Shown here: in pieces, positions 1,029-62,527 of the stretch
Layout: every line of letters starts with the position of its first letter
How positions within the stretch are numbered: the stretch's first letter is position 1
IMG/VR virus record: IMGVR_UViG_3300041964_000014
Coordinates: 32,001 to 96,000 of that record
DNA: 64,000 nt
DNA from: a virus
Strand: one strand, 5' to 3'
Translations under genes and position numbers: made by a program
Notes under the pieces: generated by a model
What the model was told of the DNA's origin: nothing
The model's input: only the letters and a program-made list of their open reading frames with translations
Database searches by the model: none

Positions 1029-2320
1029 TTATATTCTAGGCTTTTTAGGTTTTCTTGGACGTAAAGCAAGTCCAGTACCAATAGCACCAGCTCCCGCAGT
1101 CCCGGCAGCTAATTTACCACCTGTAGTACCCATCCCTTGTCTAACAGCTCCTCCAACTCCAGATAAATTAGATCTCAGTCTACCCTTCCCTTTTGCTTTA
1201 GCGGCTGTCTTAGCTCCAGCAAAACCACCTTTTATAGCTCCCGAAGTATTACCAGCACCTGTAGCTACAGTTTTTAGTAAACCATCTCTTTTAACATTAC
1301 CGACTTGTTTACCAACGCTAGAAACTGCTCTTTTAGCGGTTTTGAAAATAGAACTGCCTATTCCAAAGTTAGCTAGCTTTTCCATATCATCCAGCGTGAA
1401 AGCAGCAACTACTTGAGGTAATTCATAATTAGCCGGAGCTGCTCCTATACGTTGAGACAGTGTACGAGGCATTTGTGTACTTGCTTTCTGAGCAGCTACA
1501 TCTTCTTGCTCGGGAGTAGTTGGTTCTTGGGACTCTTCATCGCCATCTTCCTCAACGCCTAATACTTGCAGTACCCTATTCTCAAAATCGTCTAGCGCTT
1601 TCTCAAACAGTTCTTGTTGATTAATACTTTCATCATCAACAGTAGAATACTGGTAAGTACAACCCATAGTTGATCACTCAGATTATCGTATTGTGTTTTA
1701 ATCTGATCAACCATGCCATCGCCTTGCTCTAACTCCTCGAAAGACAAAGCAAAGGCAGCTTCTCCGTCGTAACTCTTAAATAATCTCAATCCCACAATAG
1801 CTGGTGTACTTGTGCATGAAATTTCTCTAATAGTGTCCGAAATAATATCGATACCGGGCGATACAGTTGATAGCAGTCTGTCCTTATACTGGTTAATTGC
1901 TTTACTCGCCTTGATAGCTACTTGATTAGCAAAAGCCCCAAACTTACCGACTAAGTGTTTGTAGCAAGGATCTTTAATATCTTCGTCTGTAATAACACGA
2001 GCCTCGATAGTACCCTCAACATCTCCAATAGTAGTGTCTTGGGTTTTCTGGTGATCAGTTAGTAGTGGTAAGCGGGCACCTCGTTGTAGTAGTTGGTTGG
2101 TGTTATTAACGATCTTTTTAACACGATCAGCAGAGAAAACGTGCTTACGTTGTTTACTGTCAATGTGTTCTCCTTCTACTAGTACTAAGCCACTTGTGTA
2201 AATAGCGCCATCACTTTCTGTAAATTCAGCGGATAGTGGAGCGCTTTCAAAGTGAACTATCTTAGGAGTACTATTATGTCTAAAATTAGCTATAGTATTT
2301 TTTCTTTTATATTTAGGCAT
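1029..2320 (-). CDS. Mu gpI-like prohead protease with acidic linker and basic C-terminal unit (one-base frameshift near 1640-1648)
   Basis: LPLLTDH...IGDV...TVSPG...EISCTSTPAIVGL pattern of Mu-type head proteases; ORFs 1592..2320 and 1029..1667 join by one base. Confidence 0.65.
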
Positions 2321-2394
2321 ACAGTTTTATATACTCATATAGTAGATACTATCTGTAGTTATACTAAAACTAAGTATACTAATGACGCATAGAC

Positions 2395-2637
2395 ATGACA
2401 AAACGTATCACTAATATAAATAAAGTTATTGGTAGTAAGCTTAAAAAAGCCAGAGACTACCGAGGTTATTCCCAGAGTCAGTTTGGTAAAGTAGTGCATT
2501 TAAATCAAACGCATATTTGCAAAATAGAAACAGGAGAGCGGGGTTTAACTATCGACAATTTAATTGCCTTTAGTAAAGTGCTTAATGTTAGCCCTCTTTA
2601 TTTCCTCAGCGATTTCGAGAAAGATAATCAATCTTGA
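2395..2637 (+). CDS. XRE/Cro-like HTH transcriptional regulator
   Basis: IGSKLKKARDYRGYSQSQFG...ICKIETGER, HTH_3 pattern. Confidence 0.85.
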   Translation: MTKRITNINKVIGSKLKKARDYRGYSQSQFGKVVHLNQTHICKIETGERGLTIDNLIAFSKVLNVSPLYFLSDFEKDNQS

Positions 2638-3863
2638 GATTTAGTACGTCTTATATCGCTTATTTTAGTTTTTAAATTAACCTTACTTTCCTTGTACAAT
2701 CTTTCAGCATTAACTAGCTTCTTTTTAGCAGCCATAAGAGCTTGTTCTTTTTTATTAGCAGGAATGTTACTATTATTTTCGGTCTTATTGTATTTATCTT
2801 TAGTCTCCTTTAGTTTTTGTCGCATTTGTCTTACGTTGCTTATTTCTTCTTTTAAAGAAGTATTGGGCTTAGTATTAACACTTACACGGGGTTTAGATTT
2901 AGGAGTATTAACGGTAATAAGTTTAGGGGGCACGTAGTCTTTGGGTATTACAAAATCTCTAACGACTTTGTTAGTCTCATCTTGCGATAGATAGTGGTAA
3001 GATCCGTGATCTGACATATACCTATCGACTAACTTACCTGGTTTCTTTTGATTATTTTTATTTATTACAACTGCTCCTGGGAATTTGAAAGGCTTGGCTT
3101 GCCAATCATTGTTATCTAATATATGTAATGAATTCTTAGCCGGAGGTAGAATACCATGACTATTAGCTCCATAAGTTATTTGTTTAATCTTGTCAGTATT
3201 AACCCCCATTTCTTTGAGAATATGCATAGCTTCGTTTGTAACATAGCCTCCAGAGCTATGCCCATGCAAAGTATGGATCTTATCTGGGTACTTATCTATA
3301 TTCGCTTTAACAGTAGCTGCTAGTTCACGAGCAGTAGGATTATAACCTTTGAGTATACCTTCTTTAGCCGCAGTGCTAGTTAAATCAAATAATTGTCTAG
3401 CACTATTGCCCGGAGCTTTATCCGGTAGCTTATTCATGCTTCGAGTATCAATAGGAATTGTGTGTCCTTTGAGCTTACTGTGTATATAACTTGACAGTTG
3501 CTTACTACTCTTGGCTTCAGCCCCATAATTCAAACCAGCTACAGCATAATTTATATTCGGACGATTAAGTTCGGCGGTAGTAAGGTTTGCTGGTATAACT
3601 TTTTTGGATAATTCTTGTGCTACTCTAGCGGACTGTTTAAGATTGACTCGATATCGCCCACGAAGTAAAGCATAACCGCCGACACTTAAGCCTAATCCTG
3701 CTGCCGCTACAACTGCTGAATTTCGTAATAAGTTATCAGGCTTTCTGTCTTTACCCCGTCGCTTGTATGCTTTAACTACCCTACCTTTGCGTATACTAGA
3801 TTTTACATTTATCTCTCTGGCAAATTTAGCGTGACTTGCGTCCGAAATAAATAGGGTTTTCAT
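2628..3863 (-). CDS. leader-tagged protein with alpha/beta-hydrolase-like domain
   Basis: MKTLFISD..AKF|AR leader, TM-like segment, nucleophile elbow LHGHSSGG, later D and DH candidates for a catalytic triad. Confidence 0.6.
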   Translation of the reverse strand: MKTLFISDASHAKFAREINVKSSIRKGRVVKAYKRRGKDRKPDNLLRNSAVVAAAGLGLSVGGYALLRGRYRVNLKQSARVAQELSKKVIPANLTTAELNRPNINYAVAGLNYGAEAKSSKQLSSYIHSKLKGHTIPIDTRSMNKLPDKAPGNSARQLFDLTSTAAKEGILKGYNPTARELAATVKANIDKYPDKIHTLHGHSSGGYVTNEAMHILKEMGVNTDKIKQITYGANSHGILPPAKNSLHILDNNDWQAKPFKFPGAVVINKNNQKKPGKLVDRYMSDHGSYHYLSQDETNKVVRDFVIPKDYVPPKLITVNTPKSKPRVSVNTKPNTSLKEEISNVRQMRQKLKETKDKYNKTENNSNIPANKKEQALMAAKKKLVNAERLYKESKVNLKTKISDIRRTKSQD

Positions 3864-4264
3864 TGTTTCTTACCTTTTTCTAGATTCCTAGATACTAAGC
3901 TATATGCCCCATATCCAAGACCTGTTAAAGTTGCACTAGCCAAAGCTCCTTTACTAGCTTTAGTTCTGAGCGTTTTTAGATATATTTGTTTGAGACGTTT
4001 ATTGCTCGGATAAATAATGTGAGCATGGGGATTACCAGCTTTAATAGCTTTAGCTAGATTTTCTTCGTTGTGATCTAATACATATTTGAATCCTTTCCGA
4101 TATCTTAAATGAGTAAGAACTGCACCTCGTGTACCTCCGGCTACAGCACTACCTGCAACTGCTGTACCAAATCCTATTCGTTTGCCACGCTTCTTCTTAT
4201 CTTTACTACCTTTCTTTCTGGCGAAATTAATGTTACCTATGTCCGAAATAAATAAGAGTCTCAT
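3860..4264 (-). CDS. basic glycine-zipper leader-family protein
   Basis: MRLLFISDIGNINF|ARKKGSKDKKKR; C-terminal GLGYGAY shared with neighbour. Confidence 0.75.
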   Translation of the reverse strand: MRLLFISDIGNINFARKKGSKDKKKRGKRIGFGTAVAGSAVAGGTRGAVLTHLRYRKGFKYVLDHNEENLAKAIKAGNPHAHIIYPSNKRLKQIYLKTLRTKASKGALASATLTGLGYGAYSLVSRNLEKGKKQ

Positions 4265-5550
4265 TTGTTGTTCCTCTTATTTCTATTAACTAACTTATAA
4301 GCCCCGTATCCTAATCCCGCTACCGCGCCACCTACTAAAGCACCTTTACCAGATGTCTTAGCTAGCTTTTTAATATAGGCTTGTTTTATCATTTTCCCAC
4401 TAGGAGCTGCTGTGTCAATAGTTCTATCTATTTCGGACAAACTATCCTTTAAATACGATTGTTTAGTAGTTAGTCGTTTAACTTCAGCAGCTACTTTGTC
4501 TTGCTTTTTTTGTTTCAAACTTATATTGTTTTTAGGATCAAACTGTTTGTTTACTTGATCTAATTCTTTTTGTACCGGATTACGAAGACTGCTAATTAAT
4601 CTCTCACGTTGTTTAGGTACAGTCGTTAATGCTTCTTTTAGTTGTTTCCTATCAGTTAGATAATTGGCTCCCGCAGTACTTAAACCCCCAATACCTGCAC
4701 CTCCAGCTATAACTCCAGCACCCTTAACTGCAACCTTACGTTTCTTTTTATCTTTACTTCCCTTTTTACGAGCGAATTCAGCTAATAGTCCGAAATAATA
4801 AGGGGATTGAAATTCGTAAGTATATTTCTGAGGAGTAATAGCCTTAGTGAGTTGTCTACCTGTACTAGTATCGATACTTACAGAAGCTCTAGCTTCACTA
4901 CCTAGATTAAATCCCCCACGCTTTCCTTGTTTGGCAATTTTATTACCACCAATTGTGGCTTGTAAATTAGTCGCAAGTTTTCTACGGTACTCTCTTTCAG
5001 CATTACGCTTGCGTTGCACTTCTTTAGCTAATGCTTCTAATTGCTTACGCTGGGGTGTTTTAATACCTAAAAAACCTACACCTTCATTTTTAGCTAATTG
5101 TACGTTTAATTCTCTACCTTGTAATACGTGTTGATTAGATCTTGCTTGCGAGGCTCTAAGCGGATTTAAATACTCATCTTGATTAGATAGTGTATTAAAT
5201 TTACTACCCTTAACTTTACCTACATCATTAGCAGATACTACTTCGGCTTTAACAGCTTTAATAGTATTACGGCGATTATTAATACGTACTCTACGAGTAC
5301 CTACTTTTACTGTGACTAATTTACCTTTAACTTTACGGGTGTGTTGTTTAACCTGAGTAATACCGCCACTAACTTTGACTGGTTTAGTGGTTTGTTTAGC
5401 TACAGTATTAGCCGCTTTAGCTACTTGCTTAATTATTTGCGGCTTTTTAGTAAGTGCTACTGTTGCCCCTAATCCAGCTACAGTAGCCGCTCCTATACCT
5501 AAGCCTATTAATTTATTACGGTTATTGTTACTCTTACTTTTTGTAGCCAT
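4261..5550 (-). CDS. basic two-unit leader-family protein (possible polyprotein)
   Basis: internal LAEF|ARKKGSKDKKKR; glycine zippers; C-terminal GLGYGAYKL. Confidence 0.7.
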   Translation of the reverse strand: MATKSKSNNNRNKLIGLGIGAATVAGLGATVALTKKPQIIKQVAKAANTVAKQTTKPVKVSGGITQVKQHTRKVKGKLVTVKVGTRRVRINNRRNTIKAVKAEVVSANDVGKVKGSKFNTLSNQDEYLNPLRASQARSNQHVLQGRELNVQLAKNEGVGFLGIKTPQRKQLEALAKEVQRKRNAEREYRRKLATNLQATIGGNKIAKQGKRGGFNLGSEARASVSIDTSTGRQLTKAITPQKYTYEFQSPYYFGLLAEFARKKGSKDKKKRKVAVKGAGVIAGGAGIGGLSTAGANYLTDRKQLKEALTTVPKQRERLISSLRNPVQKELDQVNKQFDPKNNISLKQKKQDKVAAEVKRLTTKQSYLKDSLSEIDRTIDTAAPSGKMIKQAYIKKLAKTSGKGALVGGAVAGLGYGAYKLVNRNKRNNK

Positions 5551-8500
5551 TTACTGTTATTCTCTTCTTTGGCGATAATATACCTAATGTAGCTATATTT
5601 TGTTTAAAATAAGCTGTTTCTATTTCTCTTCTCTGAGTATTTAAATCCCTCAAATAATTATCTATCTCTAAATAACGTGGGTTAGTAGGATTCAATCTTT
5701 GTTGCTCATAAATTAAAGACCCCATCTCTCTAGTTAATTCGTTTAATCTAGACTGCTTTTCTAACTGTCTAGGATTAATAGATAGTTGATCTCTAGCTTT
5801 AGGGCTATTACTTTTAAGCATACTAAGTTCAGCTTGTAAGTTATTAACATCGGCTTCTAACTTACTTAGCGTATCGAATCTACTTTTAACCCTACTAACT
5901 TGTTCTTGCGTAAAAGGTATTATTGTAGGTTGATTATTAATACGTATAGTGGGATTCTGAGTAGCACTACTAAGTAAATCAAAATCTAAGCCTATATCTT
6001 GTGTAGCACTACGTATCTTACTTAGTTCTTCAGAAGCGTTTACTAAATCTTTAATACTCTGTTCATATTCAACGGGATTAGTAGTTGCTTTATTAGCTAT
6101 CCGCTGCTGAACTACCCTAATATATTCTTCTGCTGTATCTAAATTAGTAGATAAAGTAATACGTCCTACAGATGGTTCAAAAATAGTATCAATAAAATTA
6201 AGCTCTTTAGCTTTTTGAGTAAGATAAGCATTAGCAACTTCGGGGTTACTAAGTAAGTTATCTCTAGTGCCTTTTAAAGTATCTCTATATGTTTGTCTAG
6301 TAACTTGAGTATCTAAGATATTGTTATATAGAGTATTAGCTTGATCTGTTAATCGCCTTACTGTAGACGTATTATTAACTAAGTTAGTACTATCTACAAT
6401 ACCGGGGCTTAATTCTTCTGCTACACGATATCGTTGCATAGTATCTTTGGTTTCTTCTAAAGCAGTTTTAGCCGCATTAAGAGTGTTAACCATCTTAATC
6501 TGACTAACACCTAAATCATTAATAGTTTTAGTTACAGTACTAATGTATTTGGTGTAATCACTTAGCAGTGCAGCCTGCAACTTAGTATTACCTTGAGCCG
6601 CCTGGAACCTACTCTCAAACTGCTGTCTTATTATTTCGGACTCCCCAGCTAATACTTGTGCTTTGTTTAACACATTAATATCGTTACCTAAAGCCCGACT
6701 AGCTTCGTTAAGTATCTTGCCGTTACGTCCCCGAATAGTAACACTACTATCAAACTTAGACTTAACAGTTTTAGTGGGATTTTCTAACTGCTCTAATATC
6801 TGATTAGCAGTTTCACGTTCTTGTTCTGTAGCTAAGTTAAGAGTGTCCGAAATATTAGGTGGGGCTTGTAGTTTTAAGCGATTAAAGTCCTCATGTATCA
6901 GCTCAACTAAGTCGTATACCTCGGAGGCTTGTCTAATAACGTTACCGACATCACTATTCTCTAGTCGTTGTAATACGGGACGAGATACGTTTTCTATTAC
7001 ATCGTATAGATTTATTGGTGCTACAGGCGGACGAGTTTTATTAAACATACTATTTAACAAAGCTATCGAGGCTATTGTGGCTCCACCTAATACTGATGCA
7101 GCTGCTAATTTAGCGGCAGTAAGTGGGAATGCTTTAGCTCGACCTTCAACAGGCTCTAAATAACAAGCACAATACGGATGTGGATTAGGCGGCGGTAACA
7201 TTTGTCCTGTCTGAAACAATTTAAATGGATACACTCCTTTTCCGTATCCAATATCTTGATCTGCTAAACGCAAGCATCTATCGCAAACAACTCCAGTACC
7301 ACTGTAGTTACGCTTTAATTTCCCGGACTTACGGCGAGTCTTACTATTATTCATTCGTAGATGTTCTATTGAAGCATTCCATCTAACTAACTCAATAGTG
7401 TTGTCATTAGCATAATGTGCGTAACGCCCGTAGTTATAAGCAGCAGACAGTTCTGTTAATGCTGTTCGTTTAATACTGGGTAATGCAGATCGTCTTTGGC
7501 TTATCTTCTCTAGCTCTTGTCTGGATATAGTTTTTTCTTTCTCCGGAAAGCCTAGTCGTCTAGCTTGTTCGGAGTTTAGCAAGATATCATCATTAAGCTT
7601 ATTTCTCTCTCTATTCAACTCCTTTTGTAGTTGCTCTACTTTCTGAGTATTACCAACTCTCTTATAAGCTTCGAGGCTTCTTTCTAGATTAACTATATTA
7701 TCTTTAACAGCTGTAACAAGGCGTCTTTCTATTTTCTGAGATTTAGTTTCCCGCAGTATTTTTCTAGCCTCAACCCCATAGTCAGGATACATAGAACTTA
7801 ATGCTCGGATTAAGTCCCGTTCTCTAGTATGCTTAGTACTAGCTAAATAGTTACTAATTTTACTACGAGTATTAGCAATACCATCCGTATATTGCTTAAT
7901 ATTTCGCTTAGTGCTATCGGTAATATCTTTAGTAAGCTTTTGCGCTAAGTCGTTATACCGTTTATCGAGATACTGAGCAAATTCAGTTTCGTTAGCTAAC
8001 GTGATAGGTTTCTTAAGCCGTTTGCTTACATCCCTAGTTATTTCGGACTCTTGTATTCTCCTCGCACGTATTGCACTACTCGTTTTAGATAGTGAAGATG
8101 ATGTGGGTGTTAGTGGGCGTAATAGAGTTTGTTGCCTACGTTCCGCTTGTTGTTCTGCTGCGGATACTCTTTTAGCTTGTGTTCTAGCACGTTTTTCTTG
8201 TTGCAGCTGTCTAACATCATCACGACTAAGCATATCCAACTGTTTAGGTGGAGCTACTGATTCTCCACTTGCAGCTCTAGATAATTGGTATACTAAAGCA
8301 TTTTGTTTTTGTTTTAGTTGATTTTGTTCGGCTTTAATACTATTCGCTTGTTCGGTAAGTATGTTAACTACGGTATTTCTTTGATCGGGGTTTAAGTTCG
8401 ATTGTCTTAGTCTTACTTTCGCGTACCTATCCGGATTAATAATATCCCGATTTAACTGCTCTAATCTAGAGGCATTATCTTCTTGCTTATAAATAAGAGA

Positions 8501-9020: not shown

Positions 9021-9371
9021 ATGGAACTTAGAGTAAACGACAAAACGTTAGAAGATATTGCTTGTGATATCCAAGAGTCTTATTACACTAAATTTGGTGT
9101 AACTATTGGACGCAATAAGATCCGCTACATTATCAAAGACTATCTGAGATACGTAGAGGAGGAAGTTGCCAAAGGTAACAAAGTAACTATTCAAGGTCAC
9201 GGTACTTACGATTCTTATGAGTACAAGGAACGTACTGGAATTGATCCTACCAAGCAAGAGCAGTTTTATATCGAAACTCACGACGTACCTACATGGCGCA
9301 GTGGGAAAACTTTTCGCCGTAAGGTAAGAGCAGCTTCACTCGAACGCCGCAATAAAGAAAATGCTGGTTGA
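9021..9371 (+). CDS. hup: HU/IHF-like DNA-binding protein
   Basis: GNKVTIQGHGTY...ERTGIDPT...VPTWRSGKTFR resembles HU beta-ribbon arms. Confidence 0.8.
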   Translation: MELRVNDKTLEDIACDIQESYYTKFGVTIGRNKIRYIIKDYLRYVEEEVAKGNKVTIQGHGTYDSYEYKERTGIDPTKQEQFYIETHDVPTWRSGKTFRRKVRAASLERRNKENAG

Positions 9372-9397: not shown

Positions 9398-9441
9398 GTC
9401 CGAAATAATAAGGAAATTCTCACTCCCTATTTATTTCGGAC
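9398..9441. repeat. inverted pair of the genome-wide GTCCGAAA motif
   Basis: gtccgaaataataagg ... cctatttatttcggac between convergent genes. Confidence 0.9.
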
Positions 9442-10476: not shown

Positions 10477-10844
10477 ATGGCTTCTGAAAATAGTATAACT
10501 ATCGGAGTAAGCGATGCGTTCAAAGAAAAACTACTAACCTTAGCTAAACACGAGAATAGAACACTGTCTGCGTATATTAAAAATATCTTAGAAACGCATT
10601 AAAAAAATACGAAGCTCCCGACTGGTTAGGCTTTCCTTTTGATCCTGAAGGAACATACTCTGCTCCAGTAATATCTCCAGATACTTTAGAAGAGTCCGAA
10701 ACAATAAATGCACTGAAACAAGCGCAACACATTAACAAGATTATCCAACAAGACCACCGGGCGAGTTTAGATACACTACAACAACAACTCGATACTTTGT
10801 TTGACGAGATAGCCCGCCTTAAGCAGATAGTTAGTAGTAAGTGA
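10477..10844 (+). CDS. ribbon-helix-helix (CopG/Arc-like) protein, probable one-base frameshift at ~10600
   Basis: MASENSITIGVSDAFKEKLLTLAKHENRTLSAYIKNILE to TAA 10602; another frame stays open to TGA 10844; not in the ORF track. Confidence 0.6.
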
Positions 10845-10846: not shown

Positions 10847-11398
10847 TTATTGTTTCGGACTCTTTGTTGATTTATTTTCTTGTTTACTAATCTGATGTTT
10901 TCTAAGCGCTTTTGCACCTAAACCGATACCTACACCTATAGCTGCTCCTACTGCAATTCTTGGGGCAGCTTTTTTAACGTGTCTAAAATAATTAGCTTTT
11001 ACTTTAACTGGTTCTTGAAAAATCTTGCGTTGATTATCGGCAAATTCTTGTTTAGCTTGTTCGGCGTAAGTACTAGCTGTCCGCTGGTCGATTCCTCCCA
11101 TCTTTAATTGATGTAACGTATCTCCATAAACCTTCATAGAGTCTTTATCGAGATCAGATAGAAAGGTTTGTCTTACTTTCTCGGCAGCTTTATTAGCATT
11201 TTCAGTGCCTTTTCTTTCTGTAAATATTCCCCTAGCTAGCTTGGGAATACCTCCTGACAAGAATGCTCCGTTTATTCCTAACCCAACAATCGCTCCAGCT
11301 CCTATAGTTTTAGCCGTTTTACGTTTACGCTTATCCTTACTACCTTTCTTTCTAGCGAATGTAGTAAGAGTATGTATGTCCGAAATAAATAGGCTCAT
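10847..11398 (-). CDS. basic glycine-zipper leader-family protein
   Basis: likely start MSLFISDIHTLTTF|ARKKGSKDKRKR at 11398. Confidence 0.75.
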   Translation of the reverse strand: MSLFISDIHTLTTFARKKGSKDKRKRKTAKTIGAGAIVGLGINGAFLSGGIPKLARGIFTERKGTENANKAAEKVRQTFLSDLDKDSMKVYGDTLHQLKMGGIDQRTASTYAEQAKQEFADNQRKIFQEPVKVKANYFRHVKKAAPRIAVGAAIGVGIGLGAKALRKHQISKQENKSTKSPKQ

Positions 11399-12676: not shown

Positions 12677-13132
12677 TTATTTCGGACGTTTTATTTCGTA
12701 TTTATTAACCATATGCTTACCCGCATTGTATTGCTTAATTTCTTTACGTCTCGATAAGTATTTGCTAACCCCTAGAGCAACTCCTAATCCGGCTCCAGCT
12801 ACAGCGGCTTTAGGAGCGATATGTTTTCCAGCTTTAACAACCAAATCTTTCATATCTTTTGGAGAGATTTGTAACTTAACATTTTGTTTTTTAGCTTGGG
12901 ACATACCTTGCGCTAATGCTAATCCGGTTAAACCTGCTGTGCCGACTACAGCTCCCGTTGCTGCACCTACCACAGTTCTCTTTATTACAGGCTCCCTCAG
13001 TGTGACATTACGTTTACCTGTCTTAGTATTAAGTTCTCCCTTAAGAAATTTATTCAACTTACTTTGTCTTTTCTTTTTATCTTTAGAACCTTTTTTACGG
13101 GCAAACTGAGCTACATCGCTGAGGTAATACAT
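12677..13132 (-). CDS. basic glycine-zipper leader-family protein
   Basis: likely start MYYLSDVAQF|ARKKGSKDKKKR at 13132. Confidence 0.75.
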   Translation of the reverse strand: MYYLSDVAQFARKKGSKDKKKRQSKLNKFLKGELNTKTGKRNVTLREPVIKRTVVGAATGAVVGTAGLTGLALAQGMSQAKKQNVKLQISPKDMKDLVVKAGKHIAPKAAVAGAGLGVALGVSKYLSRRKEIKQYNAGKHMVNKYEIKRPK

Positions 13133-19145: not shown

Positions 19146-19204
19146 GTCCGAAACAATAAGAGGCGAGGCGGCTCAAATGTCACTTACCCTTATTGATTTC
19201 GGAC
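19146..19204. repeat. inverted pair of the GTCCGAAA motif
   Basis: gtccgaaacaataag ... cttattgatttcggac. Confidence 0.9.
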
Positions 19205-23007: not shown

Positions 23008-23061
23008 GTAATAGTCCGAAACAAATAAGAGAATTTTTTTAGTTAGTAATGGAGTAATCTC

Positions 23062-25014: not shown

Positions 25015-25051
25015 GTCCGAAATAATAAGTGCCCCGCTATTTATTTCGGAC
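25015..25051. repeat. inverted pair of the GTCCGAAA motif
   Basis: gtccgaaataataag-tgccccg-ctatttatttcggac. Confidence 0.9.
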
Positions 25052-28376: not shown

Positions 28377-28412
28377 TTCTCTTATTGTTTCGGACATCTT
28401 AAAGGAGTTATC

Positions 28413-31717: not shown

Positions 31718-31740
31718 TGTAATAGTCCGAAACAATAAGG

Positions 31741-48582: not shown

Positions 48583-50656
48583 TACAACCGTGTTTACTGG
48601 CTATGCTCCAGCCAGATGTACAGCTGGACAGCCATATTATTCTGATAGACCATCCGGATTTCTTTGACGCCCTCCGAGAGTTTCACAATGCTGAGCTGTT
48701 TGGCTGTGACATCGAGACTTTTGGAGCCAAGGGGGAAATATTCGATAAAGAGAATGATGACGCTTTAGTGCCCTGGAAAGGATGTATCCGGCTGATTCAG
48801 ATTGCTCTCCCAGTATCGCGGAGAGTCATTATTGTTGACCTTGGTGGACGGGAATACAAGCCTGTGCTGTATCCTGAGCGATATCGGCAGTTTGGAATAG
48901 TACTACTCACAAAGCTAGCGTGTCCGAAAACAAAAAGGTTGGACATAATTTCAAGTTTGATGGCAAGTTTTTGGCAGTGCATCTAGGGGCTACTTTCCGG
49001 ACACTATGTGACACTATGTTGATGTCGCAAATTGTTTGGTCGGGTGTTGGAGTATCTAAAGCCAAGAAAGGAGAAAACAGAGCTGATCGTTGTAAGTTAT
49101 CTCATAGTCTCAAAGCAGTAGCTGAAAGACTAGAAATAGGGGATTTAGATAAAACAGAGCAAAAAAGTGATTGGGGAGGCACACTTACTAATGCTCAGTT
49201 AAATTATGCAGGAAATGACGCATTAATACTACTGGATATATACGCAAGATTACGGCGGTTAATTATAGAGCATCAACAACAGTACCCTATTTATAGCGAG
49301 TTTTTGTTTCTTCCAGTACTAATAGATATGGAAGTACAAGGTGTACCTGTTGATGCCGCTAGATTAGATGAGTTAATCTTGCAATATACAGAAGCTATTA
49401 ACTACCATACTGCTATTTGGTATAGCGAGTTTCCTGATTTATCTCATACTGCTACTAAGAAAGATCTTGTACCCGCACTTAATAATAAGTACAGTTTAAA
49501 TCTAGAGGCAACTGATGATAGTGCTTTAGCTCCTTTAGCAAAAGAGTATCCTGCCATTAGAGCGCTGTTAGATTACCGTACATTAAATATTAGTCTTAAG
49601 TACCTTACTAGTGTTAAGACTAATATGTTTAACGGTACAGTACGTAGTAATTATAGGCAGGTTACTGGAGGCTGGCGTACTAGTAGTAATAAGATAAATC
49701 TACAAAACCCTCCTAAACTGCATCCTCGGTTTAAGCAGTACAATTACGGTAGTGTTAAAAGTGCATTTAAACCCCCCGAGGGTTATGCGTTTTTAGTGGC
49801 AGATCTTAGTGCCGCGCATAGTCGCATTGCCACTCAAGTAACTAAATGTCAGGCATTAATTGATGGTTATAACTTAGGACAAGATAATCACATTAAAGTA
49901 TGTGCAAGAATACTGCAAGCTAGTGGAGTAGAAGTATCAGAACAAGAAGCTCTTAATTTACATAAGAGTTACAAGGCTAAAAAGAAAGATAAATTAGCAG
50001 TAACAGAATTAGAAGCTAAGGTTGCTGAATATCGTGACTACGGTAAGATAGGTTTCTACGCCTATCTAAATCAAGCTGGGGCTTATACTATGCAGCAGAC
50101 TTTTGCTGGATGGGGAATTACAGTTACTTTAGAATTCTGCGAACTACTAATTAGTATTCTTAGAGAAATATACGGAGAGATCTACGACTATGTACGTAAG
50201 GTATTAATCCCCTACGCTAATAGTCATGATATTGATTTCAGCCATTTTAAGGACATAAATGGTAAGCCATTACAAGGTACATACGGTATTACTTATGGAC
50301 TAACGGGTGGGCGTAATTATTGTTTAAAGGTAAAGAATAAACATACAGGTAGATACGAGGTTCCTTACACAGATACTATTAGCTTTACTTGGCTAAGTAG
50401 TGAAGCCAATATGTTAATGGAGGCAGCCGGATTACTGTATCTAGAGTTTCTCAATCACCCTGAATGGGAAGCTCGTATATGTAACTACGTTCACGACGAG
50501 ACAGATATAGTATGTCTGCAAGAATACGCGGAGGTTGTGGCTAGCCTGGTTGGCAATACTATTAAAGCTGTACTAAGCCGATTTATTACTATCATTCCAG
50601 TAGAAGAGGATAGTAACTATAGTGCTTTTATTGTTGAGGACTGGAGTAAGAAATAA
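48579..50656 (+). CDS. polA: family A DNA polymerase with 3'-5' exonuclease (one-base frameshift at A-run ~48932-48936)
   Basis: Exo DIET, GHNFKFD, YAGND; polymerase RTSS..INLQN, ADLS, R..GK, VHDE. Confidence 0.9.
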
Positions 50657-51517: not shown

Positions 51518-51640
51518 TAAATAGTAGTTTGTTTGAAATACTCCCCGTAGTATTTCGGACAGCAGCTGCCTTGTTTTAAACGGCACTTGGTATATTAATT
51601 GGATTAAATTTGTTGTACCTATATTTGGAAATTAAAAACC

Positions 51641-51849: not shown

Positions 51850-52735
51850 GAAGCCATAACATCTATATCCGATTTGTTAGTAGATTAAGTCCGAAATAAT
51901 AAGAAGCGCGGGGCTTCTTATTATTTCGGACTATTGTTTTGTGTATATAAAAAGGAAATTATTATGTTACAAGTAATTGAAAAGAATAGTGTTTTAGTAG
52001 TAGACTCTCGTTTAATTGCCGAAGAATTGGGAATAGAACATCGTAGTTTTAAAGATACTATCCAGGTTAATGCTTCAGATTTAGAGGAACATTTTGGACA
52101 GTTGCGGCGTGAAACCGCACCGTCAAAAGCTAATGGTGGTGGGGGTTTTGGAGAAACGTACTATTTGCTAACAGAAGAACAAGCCACTTATTTGATGACT
52201 CTTTCTCGTAATACTGAGCAAGTCAAGAAAGCCAAGCTTAATTTAGTTAAAGCCTTTAGTGCGGCTAAACAATCCTTAATCGTAACTCCTAGCAAAGAAA
52301 TAACACAGTTATTAACTACACTAATTAATAACCAACAAAATCAGGCACAGCAATTAGCTACATTAACTGAACGTACACAACGTTTAGATACTGTAGAACA
52401 AGAGAAAGCACAATTAGCTAACCAACTTACAGAGTTTAATGTAGCTGGCTCAATACATCAAGGTTGTTACAATATTATTCGTGCCGAGATTAATCAACAA
52501 ACTATAGTACTGATTACTGCTACAGATTACTTATTAGAAAACGGTAAATCAATAACTTACTCAAAACTACTCGCTCGACGTGCTGCTAGTTTGTATCGTT
52601 GTAGTAGAAAAGCCGAACCATTTAAAAACAAACAAAATCAAATGTTATTTGAACGTAAATATCTTGATGAAGCCATAACATCTATATCCGATTTGTTAGT
52701 AGATTAAGTCCGAAATAATAAGAAGCGCGGGGCTT
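51850..52735 (+). repeat. 67-bp exact direct repeat (51850-51916 and 52669-52735), each leading into a motif inverted pair
   Basis: gaagccataacatctatatccgatttgttagtagattaagtccgaaataataagaagcgcggggctt occurs twice. Confidence 0.95.
51964..52707 (+). CDS. Rha-family phage regulatory protein
   Basis: VVDSRLIAEELGIEH...YYLLTEEQATYLMTLSRNT...KLNLVKAF. Confidence 0.85.
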   Translation: MLQVIEKNSVLVVDSRLIAEELGIEHRSFKDTIQVNASDLEEHFGQLRRETAPSKANGGGGFGETYYLLTEEQATYLMTLSRNTEQVKKAKLNLVKAFSAAKQSLIVTPSKEITQLLTTLINNQQNQAQQLATLTERTQRLDTVEQEKAQLANQLTEFNVAGSIHQGCYNIIRAEINQQTIVLITATDYLLENGKSITYSKLLARRAASLYRCSRKAEPFKNKQNQMLFERKYLDEAITSISDLLVD

Positions 52736-52775
52736 ACCTATTTATTTCGGACTATTACTTTATATCTAATAGATT

Positions 52776-54027: not shown

Positions 54028-54131
54028 GCGAATACGAAACTGGAATGTACTTGTTGTTTCTGTTAGGTGCTGTTTGGATTGTTTTGAACAGCCTCGAATA
54101 ACTTTGTCTCCCTATTATTTCGGACAATACC

Positions 54132-54425
54132 ATGTTGTACGTGCTAATTGAGAAAGACGATTACCGAGTAGTCAAGCTGGGTACAACAGTTAACCTCAAA
54201 CAGCGACTAAGAGATCTACAAACTGGCAATTACCGTGAGCTACAAATAGTAGCAGTATTAGATGGTGACGCAACTACAGAAGCACTACTAAAACTACAGT
54301 TTAAAGAGTATAGGTTAAATCGGGAGTGGTTTAATTTAGAAGGTGAGTTATTAGAGTTTCTAAGACCTCACTTGTTTAGTTACCGAAATCCTAAGCTAAT
54401 AAGTGTTTGCAATTGTCCGAAATAA
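54132..54425 (+). CDS. T5orf172/MUG113 domain protein
   Basis: VKLGTT..LKQRLRDLQTGN...EWF; bracketed by motif copies at 54111 and 54415. Confidence 0.8.
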   Translation: MLYVLIEKDDYRVVKLGTTVNLKQRLRDLQTGNYRELQIVAVLDGDATTEALLKLQFKEYRLNREWFNLEGELLEFLRPHLFSYRNPKLISVCNCPK

Positions 54426-55083: not shown

Positions 55084-55804
55084 GATGCCCAGGGATTTCT
55101 TAAAATCTTCCGGAGAAAATAACAATTCAGAATATGTACATACTGCAATGACGGATATCGAGTGGCAACAAACCTTGGAAGCTAAAAGAGTGACTATCCG
55201 AGAGGATACATTTCAGGCTTTGGAAGAGGAACGCCGAAAACGATAATATTGAAATAGTTAGCTAGAGTCCGAAATAATAAGCCTCCCGACAATGTGGAGG
55301 CTTATTTTGTGTTGAGAAGAGGGAAAATCCATCCCTGACAATCAAAAATTAAAAAAACGGCACCGTCTCCCCTAATAATTGATTTATATAATTATAATTA
55401 ATAATAAATAAATATACTTTTAGTACCTGTAATAATGATTGTGTAATTATGAAGACGACTATGGTAACGTAGAACGAGTTAGAACTTGCCGAGCCGAACT
55501 AAGTATTTTAGATAATGTAATACTAAGTCTACTTAAGTTGCGTAATAAGTTACTACGTAAATAAACTAAATTTCACTAGCGTATATACCACTAAATACTA
55601 TGACCCCAAGAGATTTTTGCTACTGGTTTAATGGTTACATTGAGTTAACTAATCCCTCACAATTAGTGCTACGGAAGTTAAAGTAATTAAGCGCCATTTA
55701 AGAATGGTGTTTCATCATATAGATGCTACTTACCCGGACGATCAGCAAGCAGCACTAAATCAGCTGCACAGCGGTGATGATGATAACCCTTATATTGATG
55801 TGAG

Positions 55805-56247: not shown

Positions 56248-56284
56248 GTCCGAAATAATAAGGGTGCATCTATTTATTTCGGAC
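56248..56284. repeat. inverted pair of the GTCCGAAA motif
   Basis: gtccgaaataataagg-gtgcat-ctatttatttcggac. Confidence 0.9.
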
Positions 56285-57098: not shown

Positions 57099-57145
57099 TT
57101 TTTGTCCTCTTATTATTTCGGACTCTTAGTTGTTGTTTTTATTAG

Positions 57146-57940: not shown

Positions 57941-58042
57941 TACTATTTATTTCGGACTAAAATGCAGTAAAGTATCTTACTAACTGAGCTATCAAAGTAT
58001 CTATAATTTGTTACAGTAAATTATCTACAGTAAATACTAACG

Positions 58043-61000
58043 ATGGACTTATTATCACAAGAGAGTTACCTAAAGTACTATCAGTTAATCAATCCGCAGT
58101 ATATTAGCTGGGACTTTTATTCGCAGTATTTAGACAAAGAACCCCCATTTGGTGAGTTAGGGGCAATTGTATTCCTACGTACATACAGTCGATTTGTGCT
58201 TGAACTCAAGCGACGCGAGAAGTTTGCCGAGACTTGTTTACGTGTTGTGGAATACAGTTTATCGCTAGATACTGTTAGCGATACTTACGCTCTCCGGGAG
58301 GAAGCCGAGCAGTTATTTGATTGTTTATTTAGTTTACGGGGATTTGCTTCGGGACGCTCGTATTGGGTAGCCGGAACTGAGCAAACAAAACGATGTGGTT
58401 CTGCTACGTGGAATTGTTGCTTCCGTACAATGGATAGCATCTCCGCTTTTAGTGAAGTATTTTATTGGTTGCTACTAGGTGCTGGTGTTGGTTTCTCTGT
58501 AGAGAATAAGTATGTCAGCAAGCTGCCTACGTTTAATACTCAAGTAGAAATTAAACATACCCCATACATTTTTAATCAAAGTTATTACCCTAATACTCTT
58601 ATTTATCCCAATGAATCTCGGCTGGATGGCTATACTCTTACAGATACTGATCTAGTTGTTTCGGACGCAGAGTTTCTCCAACATTGGGGATTTCAGGATG
58701 AAGAACACTTTACCGTAATAGTTGGAGATAGTAAAGAAGGCTGGTGTACAGCTTTAAGAGTGTTATTGTATTTACTTACACTACCCAACACTAAGTCAAT
58801 AACATTTAACTATAATAACGTTCGCCCTAAAGGAGAACGTATTAAAGTATTTGGTGGACGTGCTAGTGGTCATCAGAATCTACAAGATGTATTGCAACGT
58901 ACTCACGACATTGTTTGCGAGAGTAAAGGTAAGCTTAATTCTCTTAACGTACTAGATGAAGTTAATACTATAGGTGTTGGAGTAGTTAGTGGCGGTGTTC
59001 GTCGTACTGCTGAAATTGCGTTAGGGGATGCGGATGATACTTATTTTATTGAAGCCAAACAAGATTTATGGACTGATGAGTCAAAGGCTAAGTATAGGAA
59101 TATTCGAGTTATGTCTAATAATTCAGTAGTTTTCTATGAAAATCCTGGACTTGAAAAGATACGTGAAATTGTACGTAGAATTCAAACCAATGGTGAACCG
59201 GGCTTTTCTATTGTAGGCAATGCTCAAAAACATGATCCTAATATAAAGGGTTTCAATCCCTGCCATGAAGCCAGTCTTGATTCTCATCAATCCTGCAATT
59301 TAGTGACCGAGAATCTAGTAGCTCATATCTTTGATGGACTACTTGACTATGCTTTATTACAAGATACTTTACGCTTGATTACTCGTGTTGCGTGTCGTCA
59401 AACTACAGCTAGTCAGTGGCATCCACAATGGGACGCAGTACAAAAACGAGACAGACTAATCGGTGTATCGATGACTGGAGTTGAGGATGCGTTTGATATT
59501 CTAAACTGGGGCGATGAACAAAAAGCTGATTTCTACAACTGGGCAGCAGATATTGTGCGGGATGAGGCAGATAAGTACAACGCTCATCTAGGTATTGAGA
59601 AATCTAAGCGGGTTACTTTGGTTAAACCTGAAGGCTGTGAAGTAATTGAGAGTTTGCGAGTCTTTAACGAAGGTATCCTTCGCATAGATGAAATAGACTC
59701 CAATATATCTAATAAAACGGGATTTTACAAAAATACTGTTTCTTTGACAACAACACACTGGAATGATAAGGTTAGTAGCTTATTTAATAATGGGTTATCT
59801 GATATTGCAGAAATTACTCTAAATAATGGTCGCAAGTTGAAGACAACAGTCGAGCATCGATTTCATGTGCAAGGAACATGGAAACGGGTTTTAGATCTAA
59901 CTATAGGGGATGTATTAGATGTAGAATTAGGTAGTTATCAAAATAAAAACAATACCCCAATGTATGTTCCTACTAATGGAACAGGACTTAAGAAGGTTTC
60001 TCTACCTACACGAATGTCAGAACCTTTAGCTTGGTTTTTAGCTGCTATTTACGCAAATGGCAGCACTTCTACAAGGGGATATGTAGATTTCTGTAGTGGA
60101 CATTTGTTAGTTTGCACTAAATTCAAACAGATCGTTAAGCAATTATTCGGGGTAAATGTAGAGTTCAAAAAAGACTCTATAAAGGATATGTATCGCACTC
60201 GTATTAATTCTGTCGATATTTGGCAATATTTGAAAGAAAATAACTGTTTAAAAAGCGATCAGTTTGATCGTGTACCGCTTGTTGTAAGAAAGTCTAGTCG
60301 TCAGAGTGTATTAGCTTTTGTGGCAGGCTATCTAGACACCGATGGCTGTTTTAAAAATAAAACTTGCGCGATTACATCCACGAAACTAGACTTTGCCCGA
60401 AATCTACAAGAAGTGTGCGAAGCCGTTGGATTATCATTCAGTGCTTACGAAACTAAACGAGAAACTACAAAAGGAGAATGTCATTATATAGATTTGCAGT
60501 TATCCCGTACTTTTAGCACTAAAGATGCAATTGATTATATTAATCAAAACTGCATCAAGGCACAGGAGCATCCAATCCTTTACTCCAGTAAATCACATAA
60601 AAATCCCTATAAAGTAAAATCTATTACTTTACTGGATAACCTTGAAATGACTTATGATATCGAAGTAGAAAATTCACACTGTTACCTAAATGGGGGAATT
60701 AAATCGCATAACACATTAAGTCAATTGCCCACAGTATCGAGTGGTATTGGTAAAGCTTATGCCCCCTATTATCTTCGCCGTATAAGATTTTCTAGTCTCG
60801 ATCCACTAGCATTAGCACTGTATCAGCAAGGTGTGCCTGTAGTACCTGAGAATGGTCAGGGAGACGATTTATTTAGCGAAAAGTGCAATACATGGGTATT
60901 TACTTTCCCAATAAAAACAAACGCTAAGATCCGTGCTATTGATGAACCTATTGAGGAGCAATTTAAGCGGTACTTGCTGGTACAAAACACATATGTGCGC

Positions 61001-61317: not shown

Positions 61318-61533
61318 GGGTAGTTAAAGATAACTAAAACAATGCAGCTTAAGTACCCTACTATTTAAGCTGCTTACTACTACTAAACTAATATGCTTAT
61401 TACTAAAGACAATTTAGAGTTAGGTAGATTAGAACAGTTATTAAACTCGCCTAATCTTAGTAGTGCAGACATTAGAAGGATTAATAGATTAATAAGGCTA
61501 ATTAAGGAAGCAGAATCTGAGTGATTATTACTT

Positions 61534-61893
61534 ATGCTATTATCCGAAGCTTTTAATACCCTTAACACTGTAGACTTCTTAGAACTAGTAAATAAGGTTA
61601 TTACTAGCAATCAATTAGCTGTCGCAGATATAGACACATTAATAGTTTATAAATTAAGAAAGCTATGGATAGAGCATAATAGTATGGATAAGTATCCTTG
61701 TTCTAGTAATGTTTATACAAATACTACTAATAACACTACTAGTACTACTAGGATATTTTACGACAGTAAGGAAGCTAGTACTTATTTACAAGATGCAATA
61801 GTTGAACTAACTAAATTGGGTTATGTATTTGTAGCTCACAAAGTAGACACTATTGGCAAGAAATTTATAGTTAGTTATACAGTTACTAAATAA
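61534..61893 (+). CDS. hypothetical protein
   Basis: ORF. Confidence 0.55.
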   Translation: MLLSEAFNTLNTVDFLELVNKVITSNQLAVADIDTLIVYKLRKLWIEHNSMDKYPCSSNVYTNTTNNTTSTTRIFYDSKEASTYLQDAIVELTKLGYVFVAHKVDTIGKKFIVSYTVTK

Positions 61894-61894
61894 T

Positions 61895-62527
61895 ATGCGA
61901 TTAACTAGTTTACGTACCCGTAAAGGTAACTCCGGTTTTACCGAGCTAATTAAAGGTAACAGAGTACCTAAAAGCGATCAACTTTGCTTTATTAACAACG
62001 GTATTCAACGAGCAGCTACACGGGCTAACTTACTTAACAAAGAATACAACTTTCTGCATAAGGAGGATGCCGAGTTAATTGGCAAGTTGGTAAACCCTGA
62101 GTTAGGTAAACTTATTGCTAGCTTATGGGCGAAGTTAGAACTAAATGAAATGGCTCCACAACTATCTTTACTTGAATCATTTGAAGCAAGACTGTCCGAA
62201 ATAAATAAGGGGTTTAAGTCAGAGCATGAGTTTGTGGTATTCCATAGTGTCCCAGCGCTGAAATTTTATATGGTGACTCTGGATATCCGCGATGTAGAAC
62301 ACTTTGCATGGTGCATCATACATCGCTTCTATGGATATGCTGAGGAAAACTTCAGTGACGAGGTACAGATCACAGGATCGTTTTATAACTTGCTGGGTGA
62401 TTACTTTTTCAATGTATGTCGTTTGATAGAAAAAGATCATTACGGTAAGGTAGAGTACTGGCAAAACCCGCTAACAAACAATCCCCTTATTATTTCGGAC
62501 GCATCTTCCAGCTCCGAGGAACTATAA
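61895..62527 (+). CDS. PduO-type cob(I)alamin adenosyltransferase-like protein (divergent)
   Basis: TRKGNSGFTELIKGNRVPKSD resembles T(R/K)xGDxGxTxL..G.RV.K; FYNLLGDYFFNVCR resembles LNRLSDYLF..AR. Confidence 0.65.
   Translation: MRLTSLRTRKGNSGFTELIKGNRVPKSDQLCFINNGIQRAATRANLLNKEYNFLHKEDAELIGKLVNPELGKLIASLWAKLELNEMAPQLSLLESFEARLSEINKGFKSEHEFVVFHSVPALKFYMVTLDIRDVEHFAWCIIHRFYGYAEENFSDEVQITGSFYNLLGDYFFNVCRLIEKDHYGKVEYWQNPLTNNPLIISDASSSSEEL

Follow-up and report, generated by a model that had tools for sequence, protein, structure and literature searches.

The DNA examined here, called the window throughout, comprises 64,000 nucleotides (bases 32001-96000) of the IMG/VR virus record IMGVR_UViG_3300041964_000014, a linear phage genome of 111,188 bp (G+C content 0.379) that is 76% complete according to CheckV and is designated G000 below. 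Its replication genes are T7-like (primase, AAA_25 helicase, family-A polymerase and exonuclease), and its genes and spacers alike are strewn with copies of one short word, GTCCGAAA, which consists of an invariant 8-bp core followed by an A/T-rich tail. This motif is a real genome-wide signal at the DNA level: the word is enriched, its core is invariant, its copies are written by point substitution and turn over between lineages, the core is kept by purifying selection, copies are spaced in a strand-specific manner, and close pairs between genes form hairpins of constant position and polarity. The strand-wise spacing argues for a polar signal, and a mechanism resembling that of Chi is tentatively favoured to account for it.

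Two independent lineages and one close variant were available for comparison. An exact 15-mer scan of IMG/VR identified contig 3300018984_000002 (G001; 127,110 bp, 99% complete, G+C content 0.334). Fragment G002 is identical to G001, and G003 is a 27.5-kb variant of it with 93-99% identity. G000 and G001 share 75 reciprocal-best protein pairs of median identity 50% and nucleotide blocks of 65-75% identity. No near relative of G000 was detected by blastn in the phage collection, where the best TerL match was 38% identical, and helicase and TerL searches of IMG/VR retrieved the G001 lineage only. In a large protein collection, TerL relatives were encountered at 84%, 69%, 51% and about 40-44% identity, on contigs of up to 130 kb. 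Genes of G000 were called as a crude set of longest open reading frames (ORFs), 203 in number and covering 90% of the DNA. A literature search with the word as a string returned primers only.

Abundance and sharpness of the word

An earlier note on this DNA, made from the sequence alone, had estimated about 60 copies in the window, evenly split between the strands, where chance would give one or two. Exactly 60 copies of GTCCGAAA were counted (31 +, 29 -) versus 1.16 +/- 1.07, with a maximum of 5, in dinucleotide-preserving shuffles; the coordinates it had quoted are all correct, those of minus-strand copies being the start of the 15-mer. The whole of G000 holds 101 copies (52+/49-), making the word the most frequent 8-mer of the genome. 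The relative G001 carries 85 cores (38+/47-), again as the top 8-mer, and the reversed control word occurs 1 and 3 times. The logo of the aligned copies reads (A/T/C, never G)-GTCCGAAA-Y-A-A-W-A-A-G-G. The 24 single-mismatch variants of the core that were tested occur 0-6 times each, which is background level, and no halo of decaying copies surrounds the exact word. The tail is weaker than the core, yet real, and this holds inside genes too, where positions +8 to +12 are free of G in 61 of 64 copies.

Within ORFs, chance expectations were obtained by permuting synonymous codons and by permuting codon order. The enrichment persists under this control, which the earlier note had proposed as a check: G000 has 70 within-ORF cores versus 7.1 (maximum 12) after synonymous-codon and 2.2 (maximum 8) after codon-order shuffling, and G001 has 56 versus 3.6 and 1.5, respectively. 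About 64 copies of G000 are fully genic and about 37 are intergenic or overlap a gene end, with roughly 10% of the DNA being intergenic. Core density reaches 2.9 and 3.5 per kb between genes in the two genomes versus 0.43-0.73 per kb in ORFs, a 4-7 fold difference, and is similar in core ORFs and in lineage-specific ORFs. The placement within genes in different frames was confirmed: the genic copies of G000 use five of the six frames, 35 in sense and 29 in antisense orientation, and keep the reading frames open. Sense copies are read as VRN, xSEI or xPK-stop, the TAA of the word forming the gene end in the last case, and antisense copies as xISD, YYFG or LLFR. The 831-aa gene (19294-21789) is indeed devoid of copies, and the ribonucleotide reductase (RNR) gene (window 58043-61066, 1007 aa) has one only, at 58659. 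The RNR protein of 1007 aa has an orthologue of 418 aa in G001 (108701-109957), which is consistent with an intein or a fusion.

The possibility of an assembly or adapter artefact, raised at the outset, is at odds with the open frames and with the recurrence of the same word, as the top 8-mer, in the independent assembly of a 50%-divergent relative, as well as with its presence in the 93-99% variant. The word was also rightly distinguished from HIP1, the highly iterated palindrome of cyanobacteria, since it is asymmetric; HIP1 itself is found once in G000 and never in G001.

Origin, turnover and conservation of the copies

Genic copies were mapped on alignments of orthologues. In G000, 30 copies face gap-free sequence without the motif, 7 are shared with the relative and 2 lie at gaps; the corresponding numbers for G001 are 14, 8 and 10, and six of the ten gap-facing copies belong to a 2519-aa gene without real counterpart. 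Summed over both genomes, 44 copies are substituted, 15 shared and 12 at gaps. As the orthologous sequence opposite the substituted copies is gap-free and lacks the motif, these copies were written by point substitution and not by insertion, and their positions turn over. The peptide VRNIMGEP, for instance, is encoded by both phages, as GTCCGAAAT in one case and GTAAGAAAT in the other, a purely synonymous difference, and KSETIQ is encoded as AAGTCCGAAAC and AAGAGTGAAAC, with a synonymous exchange of serine codons (TCC against AGT). Conservative amino acid changes are found too, such as ..VND to ..VSD, encountered three times. Conservation is slightly lower at core-encoded residues than in the remainder of the same proteins (identity 0.49 vs 0.555), and shared positions fall mostly where peptides are conserved or within the shared N-terminal leader.

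The close variant permits a view on shorter time scales. Between G003 and G001, 18 of 19 sites are kept, and differences number 2 in 152 core positions versus 216 in 3429 positions of the +/-100-nt flanks (Fisher p=0.008); tail positions change at about the background rate. This shows the core to be under purifying selection. In places, one of these two sequences has a block of 0.6-1.2 kb replaced or inserted relative to the other (alignment columns 3211-4149, 6758-7995 and 13802-14435). Two block edges abut a core exactly, with the variable DNA located 5' of GTCCGAAA both times, but taken over all edges the association is not significant.

The single cores of the window, and one convergent pair inside the primase gene, are the following.

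1835..1842, + strand, antisense in gene 1592-2320 (..IISD); position common to the relative
3840..3847, + strand, antisense; N-terminal leader MKTLFISD of gene 2628-3863
4241..4248, + strand, antisense; leader MRLLFISD of gene 3860-4264; position common to the relative
4431..4438, - strand, sense in gene 4261-5550
4788..4795, + strand, antisense in gene 4261-5550
6634..6641, - strand, sense in the 1118-aa gene (ESEII); position common to the relative
6845..6852, + strand, antisense in the 1118-aa gene (NISD); orthologue TSQ, gapless
8041..8048, - strand, sense in the 1118-aa gene; ESEIT, orthologue ESQRN
10694..10701, + strand, short ORF or spacer
10853..10860, - strand, its TAA is the stop codon of gene 10847-11431
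11378..11385, + strand, antisense; leader MSLFISD of gene 10847-11431
12680..12687, - strand, stop codon (..RPK-stop) of gene 12677-13180
13912..13919, + strand, sense in the RecA-like AAA_25 gene 13352-14281
17496..17503, - strand, sense in gene 17258-17998; VRNIMGEP
22141..22148, + strand, stop codon of ORF 21930-22151
22773..22780, - strand, antisense in ORF 22585-23007
23014..23021, + strand, intergenic
27173..27180, + strand, sense in ORF 27098-27343
28388..28395, - strand, intergenic, 3' of an AntA-like gene
31725..31732, + strand, intergenic
32088..32095, - strand, intergenic
33719..33726, - strand, antisense in ORF 33631-33852
34584..34591, + strand, sense in ORF 34449-34799; VRNNQ, orthologue VRRNP
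36362..36369, - strand, antisense in gene 35809-36714; VVVSD vs VVVND
38847..38854, + strand, sense in ORF 38380-38997
40611..40618, - strand, antisense in ORF 40529-41011; position common to the relative
42095..42102, + strand, sense in ORF 42072-42584; KSETIQ
44413..44420, + strand, sense in the exonuclease gene
46264..46342, convergent pair of cores 71 nt apart inside the primase gene; sense KSEII, antisense LFISD
47129..47136, - strand, antisense in the replicative helicase gene; LFVSD vs IFVND
48301..48308, + strand, sense in the helicase gene; VRNTKT vs VKNTKT
48922..48929, + strand, start of the PolA-family ORF
51553..51560, - strand, short doubtful ORF or spacer
54118..54125, - strand, intergenic
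54415..54422, + strand, tail continuing into AAGGAG then ATG (stop codons and ribosome-binding-site context)
55267..55274, + strand, intergenic
57116..57123, - strand, intergenic, 23 nt 5' of the second KilA-N gene
57950..57957, - strand, intergenic
58659..58666, - strand, antisense in the 1007-aa RNR gene; LVVSD vs LILND
62194..62201, + strand, sense in the Cob_adeno_trans-like gene
62493..62500, - strand, antisense in the Cob_adeno_trans-like gene

The leader copies belong to a family of head-module proteins whose N-terminus follows the pattern M-x-x-L-F-I-S-D-x(4-5)-F-A-R-K/R, often continued by a basic KDKKKR stretch. Members are encountered in the window (3840-3863, 4241-4264 and 11378-11431), elsewhere in the genome (14431-15369 and 24651-24854) and in G001 (22593-24199, 33180-33521, 37263-37691 and 39538-40242). 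In nearly every member, the motif read in reverse complement spells the codons of LFISD, so that protein and DNA constraints coincide there. By its sequence, the segment looks like a shared capsid-targeting or cleavable leader.

Strand-specific spacing

Neighbouring copies tend to alternate between strands, in 73 of 100 steps in G000 (50.4 +/- 5.0 expected by chance) and in 57 of 84 in G001 (42 +/- 4.5), and this excess survives the collapsing of close pairs (p=0.001 and 0.03, respectively). On each strand, copies lie 2.2-3.3 kb apart on average and are more evenly distributed than chance allows: in the four strand sets the coefficient of variation (CV) of the spacing is 0.59-0.61 versus 0.97 for random placement, and 0.79-0.85 under a null model imposing a hard minimum distance (p=0.001-0.03). 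Same-strand gaps of 500 bp or less number 1, 2, 1 and 0 in these sets, where 10.5, 9.4, 5.2 and 7.8 are expected. Copies on opposite strands behave differently. Judged by circular shifts, they are independent or slightly attracted, and repulsion is absent even without the hairpins; once these are removed, 12 opposite-strand copies lie within 300 bp of each other in G000 versus 7.5 expected, and 4 versus 5.2 in G001. Units are also evenly spaced (CV 0.68-0.71, p<0.001).

A more stringent null model kept all positions fixed and swapped the strand labels only, forbidding same-strand gaps under the observed minimum. The labels of the two phages still cover each strand better than these shuffles, with a per-strand CV of 0.59 and 0.61 versus 0.70 and 0.72 (p=0.003 and 0.016) and maximal gaps of 5.9 and 8.4 kb versus 8.3 and 11.4 kb (p=0.006 and 0.04). 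Copies thus become redundant when another of like orientation lies close by, and not when the neighbour is inverted, which indicates that the two orientations are not interchangeable. A polar signal required in each direction would produce this pattern, which an orientation-blind binding site on double-stranded DNA would not predict. Avoidance of direct repeats could add to the short-range effect between same-strand copies, yet it does not account for the coverage. The earlier note had reasoned that equal numbers on both strands oppose a polar signal of the Chi type or of the KOPS (FtsK-orienting polar sequence) type; this reasoning is not supported, since same-strand copies are over-dispersed and opposite-strand copies are not, and since the strand labelling is more even than in the shuffles. 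What appears to matter is the collective density of the signal per strand, and not any fixed position.

Inverted pairs and hairpins

Close pairs, with two copies within about 100 bp, number 13 in G000 and 9 in G001. All 22 consist of a plus-strand copy followed by a minus-strand copy, with the core outside and the tail toward the loop; pairs of opposite polarity or on the same strand do not occur. Those of the window are listed with the strand and first base of each copy.

9398..9441 (+9398/-9434), 44-nt hairpin between convergent genes, 27 nt past the IHF/HU-like stop codon; -22.1 kcal/mol, z -6.0
19146..19204 (+19146/-19197), 10 nt past the stop of ORF 18300-19136, ahead of the 831-aa gene
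25015..25051 (+25015/-25044), 37-nt intergenic hairpin; -17.3 kcal/mol, z -3.9
29397..29432 (+29397/-29425), intergenic hairpin, 14 nt past a stop codon
30897..30930 (+30897/-30923), intergenic hairpin, 15 nt past a stop codon
42704..42752 (+42704/-42745), intergenic hairpin; -32.6 kcal/mol, z -9.1
51889..51931 (+51889/-51924), perfect 20-bp stem directly 5' of a Rha-domain gene; -31.3 kcal/mol
52708..52752 (+52708/-52745), beginning 1 nt past the stop of the Rha gene
56248..56284 (+56248/-56277), 41 nt 5' of a KilA-N gene

Nearly all pairs occupy spacers between co-oriented genes, 8-46 nt past the upstream stop codon and ahead of the next start, and a motif pair is found at the same place 3' of the IHF/HU-like gene in both phages. 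Folding energies of -17 to -33 kcal/mol are predicted (z -3.5 to -9), and T-rich sequence lies behind the hairpins; the polarity of the pairs sets the G+C-rich GTCC/GGAC at the base of the stem, beside this T-rich trailer. A scan for consensus terminators over 41-60 kb flagged one of five pairs, that at 51889, most hairpins being without a canonical U-tract, and Rfam gave zero matches for the hairpins.

Junctions between core genes that are adjacent in both phages rarely carry copies (1/25 in G000, 0/25 in G001). Junctions by lineage-specific ORFs or at synteny breaks carry them in 13/69, 17/93 and 1/9 cases in G000 and in 6/66, 13/90 and 7/11 in G001, the mean gap sizes of the junction classes being similar. 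Intergenic pairs probably have a second role at the borders of accessory gene cassettes, where they would mark transcript ends or serve as terminators.

Gene content and candidate readers

Two conserved loci of the window are of particular concern as candidate readers of the word.

9021..9371, + strand, IHF/HU-family gene conserved in both phages; candidate architectural reader
46073..48582, + strand, primase of the T7-like kind, with Toprim and a 4-Cys zinc ribbon, together with the AAA_25 replicative helicase; conserved in both phages and candidates for reading the word in lagging-strand priming

IHF models fit the IHF/HU-family protein slightly better than HU models do, though its scores stay far short of the curated cut-offs. 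DNA-binding proteins further include at least six of the Rha, two of the KilA-N and two of the Ant type. Antirepressor-type paralogues lie in the window at 51934-52707, 56325-57098, 57146-57940, 27630-28376 and 9526-10404, in the genome at 1250-2011, 4532-5233 and 7088-7804, and in piece L134 at 641-1384; several stand directly 3' of a motif hairpin, and orthologues are found in the relative for one or two only.

Two further RecA/RadB-like AAA_25 proteins and a T5orf172 (GIY-YIG-like) nuclease are encoded. Window 13352-14785 is a lineage-specific cassette of two genes, RecA/RadB-like AAA_25 then T5orf172 nuclease, on the opposite strand within the structural/terminase block; from its arrangement it looks like an inserted selfish or homing-type unit. 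The ORFs of window 34852-38997 have orthologues in the relative (29-58% identity) and contain the motif copies at 36362 and 38847. Other genes specify RuvC, UvdE, ThyA, DHFR, a NUDIX protein and an RNA ligase. The repair and nucleotide set, located at window 32506-33423 and in piece L134 at 2540-7202, 8178-9038 and 11977-12954, comprises UvdE (E 3e-59), NUDIX, thymidylate synthase, DHFR, RuvC, SLOG (cpYpsA) with DUF4326 and an OB-domain RNA ligase. The UV-repair gene fits a light-exposed habitat such as soil crust. The DNA methyltransferase families PF01555, PF00145 and PF02086 have no match in either phage.

Distribution outside the phages

The hairpin pattern, defined by 22 fixed bases, was searched in 185,579 genomes of bacterial and archaeal species, where it occurs at most once each, in 12 scattered single matches; in IMG/VR it is found in G001 only. 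In five whole bacterial genomes the core is no more frequent than the reversed control, at about 0.02 copies per kb, and in 401 sampled Bacteroidota genomes GTCCGAAAYAAWA is not enriched, the maximum being 8 copies versus 45 in the phage. As far as could be searched, the word belongs to the phage clade and not to a bacterium; it would be either private to that clade or linked to a host that its members share. Hints on the host are weak and consist of a Kyano_Gp96 (Kyanoviridae-type) domain and of a UvdE with mixed nearest taxa; no tRNA was found. Small shares were encountered in three DNA sequencing runs, from biocrust and soil, and no RNA run was listed.

A metagenome scan with the hairpin pattern gave 46 matches, mostly lone hairpins, and contigs with 3-4 hairpin copies turned out to carry other, longer palindromic repeats or a different variant. 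Metagenome contig Ga0247831_1095431 (1313 bp, G+C content 0.25) has four copies of GTGTCCGAAAT(A/T)AGG in 1.3 kb and may be another carrier of a related word, 1313 bp being too short to judge. Two metagenome contigs (G+C content 0.49) contain an unrelated palindromic repeat of about 36 nt (TAGGCTTCAGTCCGGTCCGAAATAACCTAGCTAGGT) in inverted pairs, similar to repetitive extragenic palindromic (REP) elements, which includes the 8-mer by chance.

A possible Chi-like polar signal and its rivals

We tentatively read GTCCGAAA, with its relaxed, G-free and A/T-rich 3' flank, as a selected, direction-dependent signal for which a Chi-like mechanism is the most likely. A strand-tracking enzyme, most plausibly a host helicase-nuclease of the RecBCD/AddAB type, would enter at DNA ends or breaks and travel in either direction. 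It would recognise the word on one strand only and there pass from degradation to protection or recombination, and no stretch of the genome could do without a properly oriented copy a few kb away at most, on either side of it. Lacking a nearby copy, a genome or allele would be resected and lost, or converted from a partner having one, which would result in both selection and drive for new copies arising by point mutation. Since ends and breaks are possible anywhere, both orientations would be needed everywhere, as in the pattern seen, and between genes both would be packed as an inverted pair. The word is exact, asymmetric and over-represented and falls in the 5-8-nt range by which Chi sequences are defined. 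In lambdoid phages dependent on host RecBCD, Chi is likewise the top octamer, at 1 per 1.2-1.9 kb (PMC12315714; PMC3784561).

Several points weigh against a Chi-like role. In the Chi-rich phages LLS and MD8, 87-100% of the sites (20/23 and 32/32) share one orientation and lie near one end, and known Chi-rich phages are without recombination genes of their own (PMC12315714). The present phage differs on both counts, with 52+/49- interleaved copies lacking terminal clustering and with RecA-like AAA_25 proteins, an exonuclease and RuvC encoded in its genome. Chi sequences are not known to be A/T-rich, as this word is. No recognisable nuclease of the RecB family, helicase of the UvrD/RecB type or RecD-like protein is encoded by either phage, so that the enzyme would have to be that of the host, and the bacterial genomes searched exhibit no enrichment of the word, in a screen that for the bare 8-mer was run without cyanobacteria and most other taxa. 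The repulsion between same-strand copies could stem in part from selection against deletion-prone direct repeats, and a Chi-like role alone does not predict the single polarity of the 22 close pairs. Finally, the recombination-hotspot role suggested by the earlier note found no significant backing: two mosaic boundaries between G003 and G001 coincide exactly with a core, which speaks for a Chi-like role, yet by the overall count 1 of 12 lies within 10 nt of a site (p about 0.2, also with 2 of 12 counted at a motif).

Lagging-strand priming is a possible alternative, if an unlikely one. The phage T7-like primase-helicase would read the word on the lagging-strand template as a start or loading site; with forks crossing in both directions, and also started by recombination, a site would be required every 2-3 kb per strand, and inverted pairs would be single-strand hairpin initiation signals usable on either strand. 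The primase-helicase is the only conserved phage-encoded strand-tracking machine with a sequence-reading module (primase identity 51% between the phages), the regular 2.2-3.3 kb spacing per strand suits the size of Okazaki fragments, and a reader encoded by the phage would explain why the word is retained across the clade despite the shift in G+C content from 38% to 33%. The word also opens with GTC, the recognition triplet of T7 primase, which is a lead only. However, known primases read 3-5 nt, we know of no precedent for an invariant 8-mer plus tail, the T7 primer is copied from template lying 5' of GTC, a side on which this motif is little constrained, and the enrichment at variable-gene junctions is left unexplained. 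Rather improbable, in our judgement, is a set of binding sites for an architectural or regulatory phage protein that organises, compacts or marks the genome, the strand pattern being a by-product of selection against deletion-prone direct repeats. Candidates are the head-module IHF/HU-family protein, for which IHF models are slightly ahead and which is followed 3' by a motif hairpin in both phages, or one of at least nine Rha/KilA-N/AntA-type proteins, an expanded family often encoded just 3' of pairs. IHF-type sites also combine an invariant core with a relaxed A/T-rich flank, and the even spacing of units (CV 0.68-0.71, p<0.001) and the denser intergenic sites agree with such a role. If orientation were irrelevant, though, either strand could supply the nearby copy that makes another superfluous, yet repulsion is confined to copies on the same strand, and shuffles that avoid repeats leave each strand less well covered than the observed labels do; HU/IHF and Rha/KilA-N genes are moreover common in phages without such a motif, and the IHF scores are far under curated cut-offs.

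The remaining explanations have less in their favour. Molecular drive without a phage function, akin to that of the uptake signal sequence (USS) of Haemophilus and the DNA uptake sequence (DUS) of Neisseria, is improbable: a biased exchange step among co-infecting phages, be it preferential initiation, repair or conversion toward the word, would spread copies as biased uptake does in these bacteria. The whole pattern is present (about 1 per kb, equal strands, point mutation, turnover, slightly less conserved residues and inverted pairs), but drive alone does not predict regular spacing per strand, phages have no known uptake step and the word is in no bacterium searched. Repair drive of the HIP1 or very-short-patch (VSP) type is spoken against by two results: the C-to-T neighbours GTCTGAAA and GTCCAAAA are not depleted, and the three methyltransferase families are absent from both phages. 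It is very improbable that the hairpins alone are functional, as terminators or in RNA processing or stability, with genic singles as by-products. They are indeed stable, share one polarity and stand 8-46 nt past stops with T-rich sequence behind them, and the terminator scan picked out one; against this, about 64 of 101 copies are genic, made by substitution, about 10-fold over codon shuffles, 35 sense and 29 antisense, and under purifying selection, most hairpins miss a canonical U-tract and Rfam has no match. Relics of a mobile element, similar to REP sequences or to miniature inverted-repeat transposable elements (MITEs), would be short, palindrome-forming and dispersed as the copies are, but the gapless alignment to non-motif orthologues effectively refutes them together with any assembly or adapter artefact, and there are no decayed copies, the copies lie in frame within essential genes and the assemblies are independent.

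Three other roles were set aside. A promoter is excluded by the lack of orientation bias relative to genes (35 sense, 29 antisense), an argument already put forward in the earlier note. A guide for a packaging motor, or of the KOPS kind, is discarded for lack of strand skew. Nick sites on both strands are unlikely, as the frequent opposite-strand copies 26-70 bp apart would give double-strand breaks.

A variant touching both the Chi-like reading and priming may be mentioned, doubtful as it is: a self word private to the clade and read by a strand-tracking machine that is phage-encoded or retargeted by the phage. Phage DNA with an oriented copy every 2-3 kb per strand would then be spared or replicated, and host or competitor DNA free of the motif would not. 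This would constitute a virus-encoded, sequence-based system of self/non-self recognition, spreading itself by recombination.

Comparison with known iterated words

The resemblance to USS and DUS that had been claimed from the window was borne out in frequency (about 1 per kb), strand equality, genic placement by substitution and inverted pairs after genes. More closely, both the phage word and these sequences have a short exact core with a relaxed A/T-rich flank and even spacing, and their genic copies occupy tolerated frames by point mutation, hairpin-forming inverted pairs being placed after genes. USS and DUS are carried by competent bacteria and act at the uptake receptor. The phage word, in contrast, is carried by a phage clade, for which no uptake step is known, is in no bacterial genome searched and does not appear to have interchangeable strands; in the absence of a competent carrier and of an uptake step, it cannot be a member of this class.

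Chi-enriched lambdoid phages offer another parallel, with an exact, asymmetric word that is the commonest octamer, at 1 per 1-2 kb, accumulated by mutation and dependent on direction and density for its function (PMC12315714; PMC3784561). The differences are the 52:49 interleaved copies without terminal clustering and the phage's own RecA-like, exonuclease and RuvC genes, as well as the fact that lambdoid phages use the Chi of their host. HIP1 of cyanobacteria is also a hyper-abundant octamer, at about 1 per kb in genes and spacers, held by selection or drive. It is a host palindrome linked to methyltransferases, whereas the phage word is asymmetric and no methyltransferase of the three families was found in either phage.

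Stoperators are present in about 25-35 copies, placed in short intergenic stretches and aligned with the direction of transcription. The phage word differs by its about 100 copies, two thirds of them genic, by the absence of transcription bias and by intergenic singles in both orientations. The stoperators of Cluster A mycobacteriophages are likewise asymmetric short sites repeated across the phage genome, and are read by a phage-encoded protein (PMC9283540; PMC6550527). REP sequences, the bacterial interspersed mosaic elements (BIMEs) and the promoter-stem-loop cassettes of T4-type phages share with the phage pairs the formation of intergenic hairpins at gene borders, here by variable genes. 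In T4-type phages, promoter-stem-loop cassettes stand at cassette borders. These elements are confined to spacers, unlike most phage copies, which are single half-sites substituted into coding sequence. There is a real chance that both the reader and the purpose of the word are new.

Biological significance

Words iterated genome-wide, such as Chi, USS/DUS, KOPS and HIP1, mark machines that read DNA, and nearly all known cases are cellular. The strand-wise spacing test applied here can be used on other iterated words in order to separate polar from non-polar signals. The phage lineage described above keeps its word denser than most known cases, within essential genes and at some cost in amino acids. 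Should the reader be an end-processing enzyme of the host, the word would reveal the Chi of that host, and its use in both orientations would be a strategy that the known Chi-rich lambdoid phages do not share. A reader encoded by the phage would instead make the word a new kind of viral self-mark or priming code.

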